Of a stretch of 64,000 nt of DNA, positions 5,708 to 19,203 are shown piece by piece; the first letter of the stretch is position 1; each line of letters begins with the position of its first letter. Source of the DNA: a bacterium. Lineage in GTDB: Bacteria > Pseudomonadota > Alphaproteobacteria > Rs-D84. Both the position numbers and the translations under genes were made by a program. The stretch spans positions 121,369 to 185,368 of the forward strand of contig JAAVBP010000004.1 in the NCBI GenBank assembly GCA_014803525.1, read 5' to 3'. Under the pieces are notes generated by a model, which saw only the letters and a list, made by a program, of their open reading frames with translations, was not told the origin of the DNA and made no database searches.

Positions 5708-5790
5708 AAAAACGCCGGTTAAACCGGCATTTTTATTTCTGGTGGGAGTCAATGAACAATTTTCTAGCTACGGATTTCCTTGGATTCCTT
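5708..5790. repeat. Terminator hairpin fused to a tRNA-Tyr 3'-end fragment (copy 2); candidate distal att of the island
   Basis: AACGCCGGTTAAACCGGCATTTTTATTTCTGGTGGGAGTcaATGAACAATTTTCTAGC; direct repeat of the tRNA-Tyr 3' end lying 13.3 kb from the intact tRNA. Confidence 0.55.
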
Positions 5791-5864
5791 AGCATTGGAC
5801 ACGATATAAAACAATTTAAGCAGATAATATCCATACAAAACACAAAATAAAAACACTATCAGCT

Positions 5865-6770
5865 TCACATTTGTTCTTTAGTACCCACAGGGACTCTCTT
5901 TGTTATTTCACAAAAACTATTATCCAGATATTCAATATTATTATCAATTTTCACAAAACAGCCCTTCTCTACTTTTCTAACCAACATATAACACGTATCT
6001 GCTTTACAAACCAGTGTATTTGAAGTATTTATATCGCCTCTTGATTTGGAAAATCCTGCCATAAAAATAAAAATTATAACCCATAAACACTTTGAGATAT
6101 TTTTTACCGATATATTTGGAACAAAGGAATCAAAAAGTAAAAATGCAAAAAACATAGCTACAAATATTACAGTCGTCCAAAAACCACATGTCATTCGCTC
6201 TATAATAATTGCTGACACTAAAAGAGCTAATACCAACAACATCACAAAAACTATCAAAAGGTAATTTAATAGAGCATTCATAACACCTTTCTTTATTGCA
6301 CACTTCACTTTCAATATAGCAGTCGAAAGTTTTTCTTGTTTCTTTAAAAGCCCCTTCATTCCTCTACAACATTTTCCTGAACCAAATAGCTTTTTGGTAT
6401 GTGATGATATTTTATATGTCTTATAGCAAGCCTCAATAAACTTTGGCAAAACCCTTATTATATCAATTAGCCTACGTGTTGTATTCTTAAAATCTTTTAC
6501 AGCAGCAACAATAATATTATCATTGTTAATTGGTATAAAGGGGAATAAGAAACCAATAAGATAAGCCAACTCAAGGAACATACCCGGCATAGTACCTGCA
6601 TAATAGTCACCAACTGTAAGGAATTCAATGTATTGAACGTTAATAAATCTGAAATACCCCAAATTGAACCATACAGCAACTAAAATCAATATACCAATCA
6701 ACGTTAAATAATATTGCTGAATCCATTTTAGAGAAAACACTTCTGTTTTATCATTTGATTTTTTAGACAT
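5865..6770 (-). CDS. Hypothetical polytopic membrane protein (very AT-rich, island cargo)
   Basis: Multiple hydrophobic helices; start chosen at MSKKSND with RBS AAGGGG; Lys/Ile/Asn-rich composition atypical of the flanking core. Confidence 0.5.
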   Translation of the reverse strand: MSKKSNDKTEVFSLKWIQQYYLTLIGILILVAVWFNLGYFRFINVQYIEFLTVGDYYAGTMPGMFLELAYLIGFLFPFIPINNDNIIVAAVKDFKNTTRRLIDIIRVLPKFIEACYKTYKISSHTKKLFGSGKCCRGMKGLLKKQEKLSTAILKVKCAIKKGVMNALLNYLLIVFVMLLVLALLVSAIIIERMTCGFWTTVIFVAMFFAFLLFDSFVPNISVKNISKCLWVIIFIFMAGFSKSRGDINTSNTLVCKADTCYMLVRKVEKGCFVKIDNNIEYLDNSFCEITKRVPVGTKEQM

Positions 6771-7021
6771 TTGATTACCCCTTATGTGCATAATATATAA
6801 AAAATGATACGCATACATTCCTTATTGTCAACCTCCCCCTAGGCCCAACACCCGACATCATAGAACCGAGCATAGTAAAGACGCCCCCCTAAACCTACTG
6901 CCCCAAAAGGCAATATGTCACAGATTTACTGATACAAGGTTGTAATGGATAGGCCTTTACGCGCGAAGCCAATCCGTCACCACCGCAAATTTCAATAGGA
7001 ATACTTTTTTAACGCTTTTTG

Positions 7022-7049
7022 TTGACATCAGTTGTTTTGATGATAGAAT
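7022..7049 (+). promoter_or_regulatory. Sigma70-like promoter (TTGACA-N16-TAGAAT) oriented toward the alpA-like and MTase genes
   Basis: Near-consensus -35 TTGACA at 7022 and -10 TAGAAT at 7044 with a 16-nt spacer. Confidence 0.45.
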
Positions 7050-7251
7050 GATAAACATCAAAATAATTGAAAGATATCTATCTAACTCAATTATTTATCT
7101 AAATTGCGAATAGCTTTTATCAACATCGCAATTTAATTTATGAATTTCTTAAATTTTTAAATTTACTGATACTCTCTCTGTTCTGGACAGGGCTTTTTTT
7201 ACACTTTTTTACTTAAAACTACAAATTTCCAACCAATCAACCAACCAAGAA

Positions 7252-16496: not shown

Positions 16497-17096
16497 ATGG
16501 CAGTTATCGGATATATAAGAGTAAGTTCCAATAAACAAACTTGTGAACATCAGCGCTATGAAATCACACAATTTGCAGAGCAGAATCATATCAAAATAGA
16601 CAAGTGGATAGATGAAACCATATCATCACGAAAGCCACTAAACAAAAGAAAGTTAGGACAGTTATTGGATGAATTAAATGACGGCGATATTCTTATTGCT
16701 GCTGAAATATCAAGATTGGGCAGGTCGTTATTGGAAGTCATGCGGATATTGGAAAGTTGCCTTAGTAAGAATTGTCAGGTATTCACGATTAAAGAAGGTT
16801 ATAGACTTGGAAATGATATCAGTAGCAAAGTTATGGCATTTGCTTTTGGTCTATCTGCTGAAATAGAAAGAAATCTTATCAGTCAACGTACCAAGGCATC
16901 ACTAGATAGCATAAAGGCAAAGGGTAAAAAGCTGGGCAGGCCTTTCTCTGCACAATCAAAGAAGCTGAAACTGTCTAAAAATACAAAAAAGATAAAGGGC
17001 TGGCTGGACTCTGGTATGACAAAGTATCGAATTGCTAAAATGATGTCTGTATCACCGGCTACTGTATCGCATTTTATCAATCGTATGGGGTGGTAA
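16497..17096 (+). CDS. Small serine recombinase (resolvase/invertase family with C-terminal HTH)
   Basis: MAVIGYIRVSSNKQ...GDILIAAEISRLGRS catalytic-Ser N-terminal domain; C-terminal HTH KYRIAKMMSVSPATVSHFI; 199 aa. Confidence 0.8.
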   Translation: MAVIGYIRVSSNKQTCEHQRYEITQFAEQNHIKIDKWIDETISSRKPLNKRKLGQLLDELNDGDILIAAEISRLGRSLLEVMRILESCLSKNCQVFTIKEGYRLGNDISSKVMAFAFGLSAEIERNLISQRTKASLDSIKAKGKKLGRPFSAQSKKLKLSKNTKKIKGWLDSGMTKYRIAKMMSVSPATVSHFINRMGW

Positions 17097-17264
17097 TATT
17101 GCTCTGCGCTGGTATGACTTCTTGTCCCATAAGACACAAAGTTCACCTTAGGGTGAATTTTTTTATTTATTAGAATTGGAAATTTAGTTCGAAAAAATAT
17201 TTGCTCCAACAGATTCTATATAACACAAGCACACAAAACTACTTTTGAAAAAAAATGTATCAAA

Positions 17265-17468
17265 ATGTCGGATATAGATATTTTAAAGAAAGAAATTAAA
17301 TCTTGGTATCCAGACCAGACATTTACCGATACTAAATTATCCGAAATAGTCCGCAGGCTTGTGTCATTTTTTGCGACATCTGCACAAATTATGCAAGAAG
17401 CAAAAAAGACAGAGAAAACCAGTATCAAGAGAAAAAATCGCGTACTTTTCAAAAGAAACACGAAATAA
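17265..17468 (+). CDS. Small basic hypothetical protein between the two recombinase genes (possible directionality factor)
   Basis: 67-aa ORF, Lys-rich C-terminus; called on position only. Confidence 0.3.
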   Translation: MSDIDILKKEIKSWYPDQTFTDTKLSEIVRRLVSFFATSAQIMQEAKKTEKTSIKRKNRVLFKRNTK

Positions 17469-17484
17469 TAAATAAAAAAGGAGC

Positions 17485-19203
17485 TTGGCTATGCCAATAA
17501 ATAAATTTGATTTAGAAAGACAAACAAAAAACGGATTAAAAAAACGGGCTATCATTTTTGCACGTGTATCATCACGAGAGCAAGAACAAGGTCAATCAAT
17601 AGAAGCACAACTCAATAACCTGCGTGAATATTGCAAACGAAATGATTTTGATATCATAAAACAGTTTTCTATCACTGAAAGCTCTACAAAAGGTGACCGT
17701 AAAAAGTTCATTGAAATGCTGGATTTTGTTAAAAAGCAACCTTCAAAAATAATAATTGTTGCAGACTGTGTTGACCGAATACAACGTAGTTTTCGTGAAT
17801 CAATCGAACTTGGTGATTTAGCCGACAAAAACAAGATTGAAATACATTTTGTACGTGAAAACCTTATAATCTCTGCGGAATCAAATACATCTGATAGAAT
17901 TCGTTGGGATTTTAGTGTTATGGCTGCTAAAACCTATGTCGGCAATCTGCGCGATAATGTTAAACGCAGTATGCAATTCAACTGGAACAGGGGGAAATGG
18001 CAGGGTTATGCTCCACTGGGGTATATAAATACAATAGACCCAGAAACAAAAAAGACCACTGTTGAATTAGACCCAGAACGTGCACCATTGGTAAAGAAAT
18101 TATTTGAAGAATATGCAACTGGTCTGCACTCGTTAGAAAGTATAACACAGTGGGCAAAGATTCATAATTTAACAACACGTGGGAATCGAAACCACCCACC
18201 AAAACCATTATCAAAATCAAATATTTACCTGGTACTGCAAAAAGAATTCTATCACGGTATTATGGTAATCAAGGGTAAACCAATGCCACATAATCACCCC
18301 AAACTGATTGATAAAACATTGTTTGATAAAGTCCAAGACATACTAAACGGAAAAAGTCGCCTACCTGCCAAAAACAGGTATGGCGATTCTCCCTTTATAT
18401 TCCGTGGCCTTGTCCGTTGCGGAACGTGCGGTTGTACAATGAGTCCTGAATTGCATACAAAGGCAAACGGCAAAGAATATATCTATCTAAAATGTAGTCA
18501 TTTGCATAAAAACTGCAATCAAAAACCAGTAAACGAACAAACCCTATTACAACAGTTGGAACGGGAACTATTTGGCAAATTCCACTTATCACCTGACGGG
18601 ATAAAAAGTCTGCAAAGAGAAGTACGTAAAAAACTTGAACAAGAATCAGGCTTTCAGCAATATTCAAAATCAGGTATTCGCGCCAATATATCAAAACTAA
18701 ATAACCGCAAACAACGAATGATTGAAGTATTTGCAGACGGAGACATCGATAAAGACGCCTATCGGCACACCATTACAAATATAGATTCTGAGATATCTAT
18801 GCTAAATGATACCTTGTTAAAATACGAAGAAGCAGATACAGATATTGCCGAAACAGTGGACAACATCATAGAAATTGCCGGCAATCCTTCATTTTTTATG
18901 AAAAGTTCGAAAATTCACGAAAAACGAGCACTTTTGAACCTATTATTTTCGAACTCGACCATAAACGGTAAAAGTCTTTGTTTTTCCTTGAAAAAACCCT
19001 TTGATTTACTCCTAAATCAAAGGGATTGTTCAATGTGGTGGGAGTGGCTGGATTCGAACCAGCTCAGGCTTAAGCCAACAGATTTACAGTCTGCCCCGGC
19101 TCTCCAACTCCGGCGCACGCCCAATCTCGTCCAAGATATGTTATCTTGGTGCGGGCAGAGGGAATCGAACCCTCATTTCAAGCTTGGAAGGCTTGCATAC
19201 TAG
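17485..19203 (+). CDS. Large serine recombinase (integrase); ORF reads antisense through tRNA-Tyr and tRNA-Gly
   Basis: N-terminal resolvase domain AIIFARVSSREQ...; recombinase domain; Zn-ribbon-like CGTCGC...C; coiled-coil. There is no stop until 19203, so the C-terminus overlaps the tRNAs. The functional protein may end near 19030, or the att site lies within its 3' end. Confidence 0.8.
   Translation: MAMPINKFDLERQTKNGLKKRAIIFARVSSREQEQGQSIEAQLNNLREYCKRNDFDIIKQFSITESSTKGDRKKFIEMLDFVKKQPSKIIIVADCVDRIQRSFRESIELGDLADKNKIEIHFVRENLIISAESNTSDRIRWDFSVMAAKTYVGNLRDNVKRSMQFNWNRGKWQGYAPLGYINTIDPETKKTTVELDPERAPLVKKLFEEYATGLHSLESITQWAKIHNLTTRGNRNHPPKPLSKSNIYLVLQKEFYHGIMVIKGKPMPHNHPKLIDKTLFDKVQDILNGKSRLPAKNRYGDSPFIFRGLVRCGTCGCTMSPELHTKANGKEYIYLKCSHLHKNCNQKPVNEQTLLQQLERELFGKFHLSPDGIKSLQREVRKKLEQESGFQQYSKSGIRANISKLNNRKQRMIEVFADGDIDKDAYRHTITNIDSEISMLNDTLLKYEEADTDIAETVDNIIEIAGNPSFFMKSSKIHEKRALLNLLFSNSTINGKSLCFSLKKPFDLLLNQRDCSMWWEWLDSNQLRLKPTDLQSAPALQLRRTPNLVQDMLSWCGQRESNPHFKLGRLAY
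19036..19122 (-). tRNA. tRNA-Tyr (GTA), type II long variable arm
   Basis: Minus-strand read: GGGCGTGCGCCGGAGTTGGAGAGCCGGGGCAGACTGTAAATCTGTTGGCTTAAGCCTGAGCTGGTTCGAATCCAGCCACTCCCACCA; anticodon loop CTGTAAA; encoded CCA. Confidence 0.85.

Follow-up and report, generated by a model that had tools for sequence, protein, structure and literature searches.

Genomic islands at tRNA genes are the textbook products of tyrosine integrases. How, then, does a large serine recombinase (LSR) come to lie against an intact tRNA-Tyr gene, with an open reading frame (ORF) that runs on in antisense through that tRNA and the next? The question is raised by a 64,000-nucleotide stretch of contig JAAVBP010000004.1 (GCA_014803525.1, positions 121,369 to 185,368), referred to here as the window and numbered from its first base. 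The host is an uncultured Candidatus Enterousia-like gut alphaproteobacterium. The evidence supports the view that the AT-rich segment ending at this tRNA is a site-specifically integrated, horizontally acquired element driven by its LSR. We consider it very probable that it is a 13,286-bp integrated island, one of a family that inserts at the extreme 3′ ends of tRNA genes (acceptor stem plus CCA) by means of an LSR.

The island occupies positions 5750 to 19035, between the tRNA-Tyr gene's 3′ end and the displaced terminator of that tRNA. It is flanked by an exact 10-bp repeat, TGGTGGGAGT on the plus strand: the attR core (19036 to 19045) is the tRNA-Tyr gene's own 3′ end, and the attL core (5740 to 5749) is a copy of its last 10 nt. 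By chance, 0.06 copies of this 10-mer would be expected in the window; there are four, a number that none of 100 shuffled sequences reached. Across attL the sequence reads ...GGCATTTTTATTTC TGGTGGGAGT CAATGAACAATTTTC..., and across attR it reads ...GGGATTGTTCAATG TGGTGGGAGT GGCTGGATTCGAACC...; the predicted attP junction is GGGATTGTTCAATG TGGTGGGAGT CAATGAACAATTTTC, and the predicted attB junction is GGCATTTTTATTTC TGGTGGGAGT GGCTGGATTCGAACC. An initial annotation, made from the sequence alone, had proposed an island at 5741 to 19122 with a 13-bp repeat of the tRNA end. The island itself stood up, but the repeat is 10 bp long and starts at 5740 rather than 5741, and the tRNA included in the earlier limits is host DNA. 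The compositional contrast described there was borne out, with a G+C content of 0.380 in the island versus 0.467 in the rest of the window; no other 13.3-kb segment fell below 0.453.

The target is an intact tRNA operon of the host on the minus strand (19036 to 19221), in which ARAGORN and Rfam both placed tRNA-Gly at 19147 to 19221 and tRNA-Tyr(gta) at 19036 to 19122. The native intrinsic terminator of the operon (5703 to 5739, minus strand; hairpin at 5714 to 5728 plus a T-run) now lies 13.3 kb from the tRNA. We surveyed empty sites among GTDB species representatives, using the neighboring LppC/LpoA-like gene as an anchor, and obtained 50 loci. The tRNA-Tyr and tRNA-Gly genes lay 0.2 to 5 kb past LppC in 24 of them. 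None of these 24 loci contained a homologue of an island protein, and an intrinsic terminator stood directly 3′ of tRNA-Tyr in all 24. The empty site of L015 is 85% identical to window positions 5662 to 5749, beyond which the homology breaks off: its end, exactly at 5749, coincides with the final base of the repeat. The adjoining terminators and this homology stop together show that the island was inserted between the tRNA and its terminator. The presence/absence comparison thus agreed with the initial annotation: the site is empty in 24 relatives.

A second sample, SRR11425431, contains the flanks of the island at 100% identity, 8.2 kb of one and 11.1 kb of the other. Two island proteins were looked up there, the membrane protein mem317 and the endonuclease Rep191 (both described below); no exact copy of either is on record for this sample, whose contigs break near both island ends, at 5655 and 19172. 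The sample suggests strain-level presence or absence of the island. The closest GTDB relative (L013, CATLAX010000001.1; LppC 72% identical) has no tRNA, 10-mer copy, or island homologue within 10 kb downstream of LppC; that locus has either a different arrangement or an unrelated insertion.

The LSR gene forms the right end of the island. Its body encodes 515 amino acids (17491 to 19035, plus strand), and the integrated ORF, which begins at 17485 or 17491, continues to 19203 by crossing the two tRNA genes in antisense, from which its final 55 residues derive. All three LSR domains scored above their cutoffs (PF00239 Resolvase, 68.8 bits; PF07508 Recombinase, 55.5 bits; PF13408 Zn_ribbon_recom, 36.9 bits), and the protein matched PHROG 95 (integrase) at 2.5e-75, so the large serine recombinase reported beside tRNA-Tyr is a sound call. 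Residues R25, S27, Q31, D95, R96, and R99 were invariant in an alignment of 20 homologues of 41 to 89% identity; the catalytic Ser and Arg residues, which the initial annotation had singled out as decisive, are all present.

The natural end of the LSR is found at the opposite edge of the island. There, the left end (5740 to 5850, plus strand) prolongs the LSR in frame by 36 codons that encode WWESMNNFLATDFLGFLSIGHDIKQFKQIISIQNTK followed by a stop codon. Both this C terminus and the passage of the ORF through the tRNAs had been overlooked in the initial annotation. Joining the two island ends reconstructs an attP, ATTGTTCAATG-TGGTGGGAGT-CAATGAACAAT, in which the core is surrounded by an 11-bp inverted repeat matching at 10 of 11 positions, a feature expected of a serine-integrase attP; attB has the arrangement terminator-TGGTGGGAGT-tRNA body. 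The tail is conserved in L012, an element at the same tRNA-Tyr site, whose left end encodes WWESISNFLATDFLGFLDIGHDIKQFKRLISTPGTE. Over the first 27 codons the two differ by six synonymous and three nonsynonymous codons, and the stop codon is at the same position.

Such conservation could also arise if the left end were kept only as the P′ arm of attP, that is, as protein-binding DNA, and the LSR truly ended near residue 515. LSR att sites reach about 25 bp to each side of the crossover, and the first 11 or so bp after the core do form the inverted repeat with the P arm. However, conservation extends for about 85 nt, past the att arm, with mostly synonymous changes and an identical stop position. 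Moreover, attL-like sites at tRNA-Asn (L111) and tRNA-Pro (L084) encode tails with the motif [LIM][AG]xx[IV]xx[FY]K, which therefore recurs with unrelated cores and different tRNA targets, and the same motif is the contiguous C terminus of family members that are not split. We regard a P′ arm without coding function as very improbable.

Sequence comparison thus shows that attP lies within the LSR ORF, about 36 codons before its stop, and that the tail is real coding sequence. With attP inside the ORF, integration replaces the last ~33 conserved residues with host-encoded sequence, namely, antisense tRNA. The excised form would encode 551 amino acids, and the integrated form encodes 570. An attP within the integrase ORF is the self-splitting feature of the so-called suicidal integrases.

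The joined form of the gene occurs in a relative. Logan contig L154, from another sample, carries DNA 95.3% identical to positions 17135 to 19042, and its LSR (P0255) is joined contiguously to the native tail, ending in ...WWARQNNFLATDFLGFLDIDHEIKEFKRIIST. Joined and tRNA-antisense forms also fell together into single 90%-identity clusters, P0258 with P0003 and P0270 with P0005, and in L071 a joined-form LSR is followed by the methylase of the left arm. Among 143 family LSRs, about 90 end in a tRNA-antisense peptide and about 45 end in the native tail. What can be observed is the products of recombination: the window has attL and attR, relatives have attB, and L154 has a junction of the attP type. 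We propose that the LSR would recombine attP with attB at the boundaries defined by these junctions, with the crossover probably at the central GG of the core, by symmetry.

Integration parts the tRNA operon from its terminator. Within the final codons of the LSR, a terminator scan located a terminator-like hairpin on the tRNA strand, with a 12-bp stem and T6 (18997 to 19024, minus strand). Beginning 11 nt past the CCA end, it reads CCCTTTGATTT-AGGAGT-AAATCAAAGGG and then TTTTTT (19024 to 18997), and it shares sequence with the LSR codons for KKPFDLLLNQR. In 15 of 22 family members, the 58 nt that follow the tRNA folded at or below −12.5 kcal/mol, versus 9% of controls (1,012 windows from the same genes; Mann-Whitney p = 1.8e-8). 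The hairpins of the subgroups differ in sequence (CCCTTTGAT/ATCAAAGGG, CCGTTCGA/TCGAACGG, and CCGTTCAA/TTGAACGG), and the residues that the far arm encodes change to match. RNAalifold found no consensus structure in the 22 aligned LSR 3′ ends because the register of the hairpin shifts by one base between subgroups, and we therefore used per-sequence folds and the control set. We infer that the hairpin and T-run of the element would substitute for the terminator from which the tRNA operon was severed. In addition, an antisense terminator at this position would shield the LSR gene from antisense read-through. Elsewhere in the window, tRNA-Met and tRNA-Thr genes lie at 38255 to 38331 and 57232 to 57305; a hairpin and T-run directly 3′ of tRNA-Met can be read in the sequence, and none was evident for tRNA-Thr, although neither site was covered by a terminator scan. 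With regard to these tRNAs, the window holds no paralogue of any island protein.

How widespread is this arrangement? L004 and L012, both at the same tRNA-Tyr site, contain in order a methylase, Rep, p119, p46, DUF3768, p91, cargo, p67, and the LSR. In the window, the corresponding genes are the methylase (8012 to 9715, plus strand), Rep191 (10127 to 10702, plus strand), the 119-aa backbone protein p119 (10842 to 11201, plus strand; copies in L004, L006, and L012 are 58 to 60% identical), the 46-aa backbone protein p46 (11258 to 11398, minus strand), the DUF3768 gene (11673 to 12005, minus strand), the 91-aa basic protein p91, which is the constant partner of DUF3768 (12009 to 12284, minus strand), and the 67-aa basic protein p67 just upstream of the LSR (17265 to 17468, plus strand). 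In L006 and L007, sister elements likewise at tRNA-Tyr, the backbone from Rep to p91 is 60 to 81% identical to that of the window, and the LSR is only 45% identical. The slot between p91 and the LSR holds the cargo, which differs among relatives: a large surface protein and an invertase in the window, two type II restriction-modification systems and a PDC-S50-like gene in L004 and L012, and a Slam-type lipoprotein export module with an invertase 89% identical to that of the window in L006 and L007.

A metagenome profile scan added 80 loci with LSRs of 39 to 53% identity; many of them have, upstream of the LSR, DUF3768 with p91, a methylase, and a Rep191-like gene. The tRNA adjoining the LSR was always antisense and started 0 to 22 nt past the end of the protein match, except in L076, where the distance was 248 nt. 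The tRNAs used as targets are those for Gln, Pro, Asn, Tyr, Lys, Glu, Arg, and Gly. The family comprises at least 140 related recombinases from animal and human gut metagenomes. We found no paper on DUF3768 and none describing this island family, which is previously undescribed. One LSR subgroup (L100, L101, L112, L115, and L143; 41 to 43% identity) has an unsplit tail and a tRNA-Glu gene on the same strand 6 to 10 kb upstream; L100 and L115 have 19-bp repeats of the tRNA-Glu 3′ end 1 to 4 kb past the LSR. This subgroup may have another layout or use a different integrase.

The trio of p91, DUF3768, and p46 also occurs without an LSR. In L152 and L153 (9722 to 14716) it is accompanied by a tyrosine integrase of 503 aa, a primase-like DUF5906 protein, and a defense-like ATPase/helicase cargo, and their DUF3768 is 99% identical to that of L004. 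The occurrence of the trio in tyrosine-integrase islands marks it as a portable module shared across unrelated integrases. A confident structure model (pLDDT 96) gave no informative PDB match.

What would the element do once excised? Rep191 is a 191-aa HUH endonuclease of the REP_ORF2-G2P family. Its match to this family was marginal (28.7 bits against a cutoff of 27.8), and it also matched a PHROG replication initiator; 35 of 40 distant relatives matched REP_ORF2-G2P as well. In these 40 sequences (19 to 45% identity), H82, H84, and E74 were invariant and Y127 and K130 were at least 90% conserved, and the best PDB matches, weak ones by both profile and fold, were HUH Rep nucleases. The small HUH Rep-like protein of the initial annotation is therefore upheld in both its HUH and YxxK motifs. 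The protein is rare: an exhaustive profile search returned only 95 cluster representatives among 1.84 billion. Upstream of rep lies a conserved noncoding region (9716 to 10126, plus strand), a candidate replication origin or small RNA. This 400-bp stretch is 90% identical among the window, L004, L012, and L006, versus 33 to 76% for the flanking proteins. It folds as a long hairpin followed by a terminator-like hairpin and had no match in Rfam.

Excision would rejoin the LSR to its tail and restore the 551-aa enzyme, for which p67 would be the best candidate directionality factor, or else a regulator. Rep191 would then probably nick within the conserved 400-bp region and replicate the circle by a rolling-circle mode, a proposal that we slightly favor. 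Rolling-circle replication after excision had been suggested in the initial annotation; the conserved HUH and YxxK motifs and the 90% conservation of the 400-bp region agree with it, and neither a nick site nor a circular copy was seen.

The initial annotation had gone further and called the element mobilizable. In the strict form of this idea, the island is an integrative mobilizable element (IME) whose HUH protein acts as a relaxase at an origin of transfer (oriT), and a co-resident conjugative system transfers the circle. Rep191 is indeed the sole DNA-processing enzyme of the island apart from the recombinases, and in streptococcal IMEs, HUH proteins akin to rolling-circle initiators reportedly act as relaxases, some alongside serine integrases. 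But we found no relaxase besides Rep, no coupling protein, and no oriT on the island, and no coupling protein, type IV secretion system (T4SS) gene, or known relaxase family on any related element. The Pfam and PHROG matches of Rep191 are replication initiators. A sister island type, moreover, has the primase-like DUF5906 protein in the Rep slot, which points to replication rather than transfer. We judge transfer of this kind to be quite improbable, and the label "mobilizable" is not one we would keep.

Searches with Pfam, PHROGs, and NCBIfam revealed no conjugation, packaging, or virion genes on the island or its larger relatives and none of the hallmarks of an integrative and conjugative element (ICE), namely, a T4SS, a coupling protein, and a relaxase. 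This agrees with the earlier statement that the element is neither a classical prophage nor an ICE. Might it still be related to viruses, as a defective filamentous (inovirus-like) prophage or a helper-packaged satellite? Rep191 belongs to REP_ORF2-G2P, and related LSR elements occur in "Bacteriophage sp." records and in IMG/VR. The filamentous phage phiRSM is said to integrate at a tRNA gene. It is reported to have a resolvase-like serine recombinase (reference 22 in PMC7192596). Against a viral origin, neither the island nor the larger L006 variant matched inovirus hallmarks (a Zot-like ATPase or small coat proteins) or, by Pfam and PHROGs, a capsid, terminase, or portal protein. Rep191 had no tblastn match in 50,697 phage records, and the "Bacteriophage sp." records are integrated copies beside tRNAs without viral genes. 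We find a viral relationship highly unlikely.

The records in question are L155 (MT837677.1) and L156 (MT836653.1), both labeled "UNVERIFIED: Bacteriophage sp." and of human fecal origin. They are integrated bacterial LSR elements at tRNA-Leu and tRNA-Glu with no recognizable viral genes; one of them carries a large outer-membrane-like protein, DUF3768, and a small invertase. A scan of IMG/VR with the LSR profile gave only six distant matches.

Taken together, these results lead us to a reading that we offer tentatively and with some doubt: the attP within the ORF would be a state switch, in which a full-length, integration-competent LSR is made only from the circle, and the island would represent an unrecognized LSR family, specific for the 3′ ends of at least eight tRNA species, that brings its own terminators. 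That the tail swap alters the activity or directionality of the LSR is a real possibility, if short of an even chance.

Several points weigh against our main reading of the island. We saw no circular or empty-site reads for the exact island. The joined form was found in a relative of 95% identity, on a contig of 3.5 kb (L154) that could be a tandem-array junction rather than a free circle. The integrated LSR, lacking its native tail, may be inactive, and no directionality factor was identified by homology. The terminator hairpin is absent in about one-third of the family, and its shifting register meant that column-wise covariation could not be shown. Rep191 was without a tblastn match in the plasmid collection as well as in the phage records, and the DUF3768 backbone gene has a premature stop. 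Finally, many of the compared sequences are closely akin, and the counts overstate their independence.

Some of these points lend themselves to another explanation, that the island is a fixed, decaying relic, once integrated by its LSR and now unable to excise, with the tRNA read-through an inconsequential accident. Its integrated LSR has no native tail, and archaeal self-splitting integrases are thought to be unable to excise alone (PMC8371274). In the DUF3768 gene, an in-frame TAA replaces a conserved Glu codon; the gene is likely a pseudogene, so this copy of the island may be decaying. Decayed att-like remains also lie beside the island, at 4684 and 5545, with similar arrays in L111 and L084. 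On the other hand, the LSR body, the tail ORF, Rep, and the methylase are intact, as are both cores, and joined and integrated forms coexist in three LSR lineages. The exact island genes were found only in two related samples and are not on record where the flanks are 100% identical over 19 kb, a patchy occurrence that points to recent gain or loss. A dead relic therefore seems to us unlikely.

The att-like remains span 4684 to 5554. The 10-mer copy at 4684 is followed by a decayed LSR tail, and that at 5545 is followed by a tRNA 3′ remnant. The first belongs to a second attL-like unit (4646 to 4723), 1,056 bp to the left of the real one (5703 to 5779), in which a near-identical terminator and TGGTGGGAGT precede the decayed tail copy (WWEWVNNFLAIDF...); this has the appearance of an earlier element's left end. 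The second, 195 bp away from the end of the island (5517 to 5749), is a terminator with TGGTGGGAGT and some 5 nt of tRNA sequence. The same unit of terminator and 10-mer is present 164 to 197 bp from tRNA-Tyr in nine related species (L016, L018, L020, L021, L024, L025, L030, L038, and L055), so this GC-rich unit, which ends by imitating a tRNA 3′ end, is older than the island; an old scar, a pseudo-attB, and a small RNA are all conceivable.

The gene-free, higher-GC stretch from 5250 to 5740 also contains a 56-nt direct repeat (5300 to 5355 and 5646 to 5701; 88% identity, 346 bp apart), both copies of which match L015 sequence just past the tRNA-Tyr terminator. A 180-aa ORF called in this stretch has no Pfam family on record and looks spurious. 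In other members of the family, arrays of three attL-like units spaced at 0.6 to 1.3 kb (L111, 1309 to 2755; L084, 5926 to 7925) lie upstream of elements at tRNA-Asn and tRNA-Pro, respectively. Each unit combines a hairpin with a 9-mer of the tRNA 3′ end and an LSR-tail ORF. These arrays may be relics of successive integrations or small nonautonomous elements.

The remaining genes of the island are accessory or cargo. At the left end, mem317 (5865 to 6818, minus strand) encodes a 317-aa multipass membrane protein that is absent from the sister elements L012 and L004. An 84-aa helix-turn-helix protein (7427 to 7681, plus strand) gave weak, subthreshold matches to MerR/AlpA-type excisionase and regulator families (HTH_17, 22.3 bits against a cutoff of 27; PHROG 66 at 9e-4). 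Its gene too is missing from L004 and L012, and the designation "AlpA/Xis-like" found no confirmation. The C5 cytosine DNA methylase (8012 to 9715) has a 240-aa uncharacterized N-terminal region and was correctly identified in the initial annotation (PF00145, 114 bits; PADLOC MTase_II, 4.2e-75), which also rightly called it an orphan: no other island protein matched an endonuclease family in Pfam, PHROGs, NCBIfam, or PADLOC. An exact 21-nt repeat, TCATTGAAATGCTGGATTTTG, at 8463 to 8483 and 17708 to 17728 encodes IEMLDF in the N-terminal region of the methylase and in the LSR; it is not conserved in L012 and could be a coincidence or a small conversion tract. The small acidic protein noted earlier (11410 to 11649, minus strand; 79 aa, pI 4.05) is there; the PHROGs it matches are of unknown function. 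The p67 gene is bracketed by a perfect 14-nt AT-rich inverted repeat (17159 to 17172 and 17466 to 17479) that adjoins the invertase gene; the repeat is at about chance level for AT-rich DNA, and p67 has the same orientation in all relatives examined.

The cargo of the window begins with a 1,207-aa secreted repeat protein (12686 to 16309, minus strand) with a signal peptide, weak Ank and EGF-like matches, and the C terminus ...RYWF; homologous cargo occurs in L092. The initial annotation called it an autotransporter. The sole support for that label is a precomputed BigA_3rd match together with the C-terminal ...RYWF: the C-terminal 370 aa matched neither PF03797 nor any other Pfam family even at E ≤ 1, and the C-terminal third had no NCBIfam match and no PDB relative by sequence search, so we leave the name aside. 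The reported resolvase is a 199-aa small serine recombinase (16497 to 17096, plus strand), of which L006 has an 89%-identical copy. It is near the Mpi master-invertase family, scoring 271.4 bits on NF009949, 0.6 bits short of the cutoff of 272. When an invertible promoter was sought, the B. fragilis consensus was not enriched, and the surroundings of the surface-protein gene yielded no convincing inverted repeats.

The window holds a cleanly delimited bacterial case of tRNA targeting by an LSR with a self-splitting integrase, complete with empty sites and a joined-form relative. Members of the family carry surface proteins, restriction-modification systems, and lipoprotein export systems in gut Alphaproteobacteria with reduced genomes. 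LSRs are preferred tools for the insertion of large DNA, so enzymes whose targets are short, highly conserved tRNA ends may be useful in practice. The same may hold for a natural C-terminal switch, should the tail swap turn out to be functional. The antisense terminator would illustrate, in compact form, how an element mends the transcription unit that it interrupts. Should the state switch prove true, it would give the archaeal suicidal integrases and Mx8 IntP a counterpart among bacterial serine recombinases.

Several known systems invite comparison. Like Firmicutes IMEs and integrative and conjugative elements of actinomycetes (AICEs) such as pSAM2, as these are commonly described, the island is a small integrated element that unites a site-specific integrase with cargo and an HUH protein of the rolling-circle type. 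AICEs insert into tRNA genes and, once excised, replicate; the pSAM2 integrase is reportedly of the tyrosine type. Unlike IMEs and AICEs, the island has no FtsK-like Tra protein, coupling protein, or recognized relaxase family. With the phiC31, Bxb1, and A118 integrases, the LSR shares its three-domain architecture, its catalytic residues, a short identity between attP and attB, and the dyad symmetry of attP. These model serine integrases target protein-coding genes or intergenic sites, and to our knowledge none has attP inside its own ORF. As of the Islander paper of 2015, serine integrases were not known to target tRNA genes.

Tycheposons of Prochlorococcus, 27 of 937 of which carry an LSR instead of a tyrosine recombinase (bioRxiv 10.1101/2020.12.28.424599), resemble the family in their modular tRNA-targeting layout, with integration and replication modules, exchangeable cargo, and arrays at tRNA genes. 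Their hallmarks are a tyrosine recombinase and a primase/helicase, whereas the elements described here always have an LSR and a small HUH protein and live in gut Alphaproteobacteria. As in the SSV-type suicidal integrases and Mx8 IntP (PMC8371274; PMC4383910), attP lies inside the integrase gene and the enzyme is changed by integration at a tRNA gene, and as in Mx8 IntP, the C terminus alone is altered. Those enzymes are tyrosine recombinases, in contrast to the bacterial serine recombinase here, in which only ~33 residues are exchanged; a 2021 review held self-disrupting integrases to be exclusive to archaea (PMC8371274).

The closest described system is that of the ssrA genomic islands of Dehalococcoides, which carry DsiB, a CcrB-like LSR, at their edge beside a small stable-RNA gene (PMC3146451). 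Both systems have a short repeat of the RNA 3′ end, reported there as embedded in the recombinase gene, tandem arrays of islands and relics, variable cargo, and a module with a second small serine recombinase and a DNA-modification gene. They differ in target (tRNA genes with 5- to 10-bp repeats here, the tmRNA gene with a 20-bp repeat there) and in host phylum, and the window LSR scores only 74.8 bits on the CcrB model, against a cutoff of 900. The Dehalococcoides islands have no HUH Rep, DUF3768, or p91, and neither a split conserved tail nor an antisense terminator was described for them. What is new at the level of the family is the targeting of tRNA ends by an LSR, the attP within the recombinase ORF with its swapped tail, and the antisense replacement terminator.

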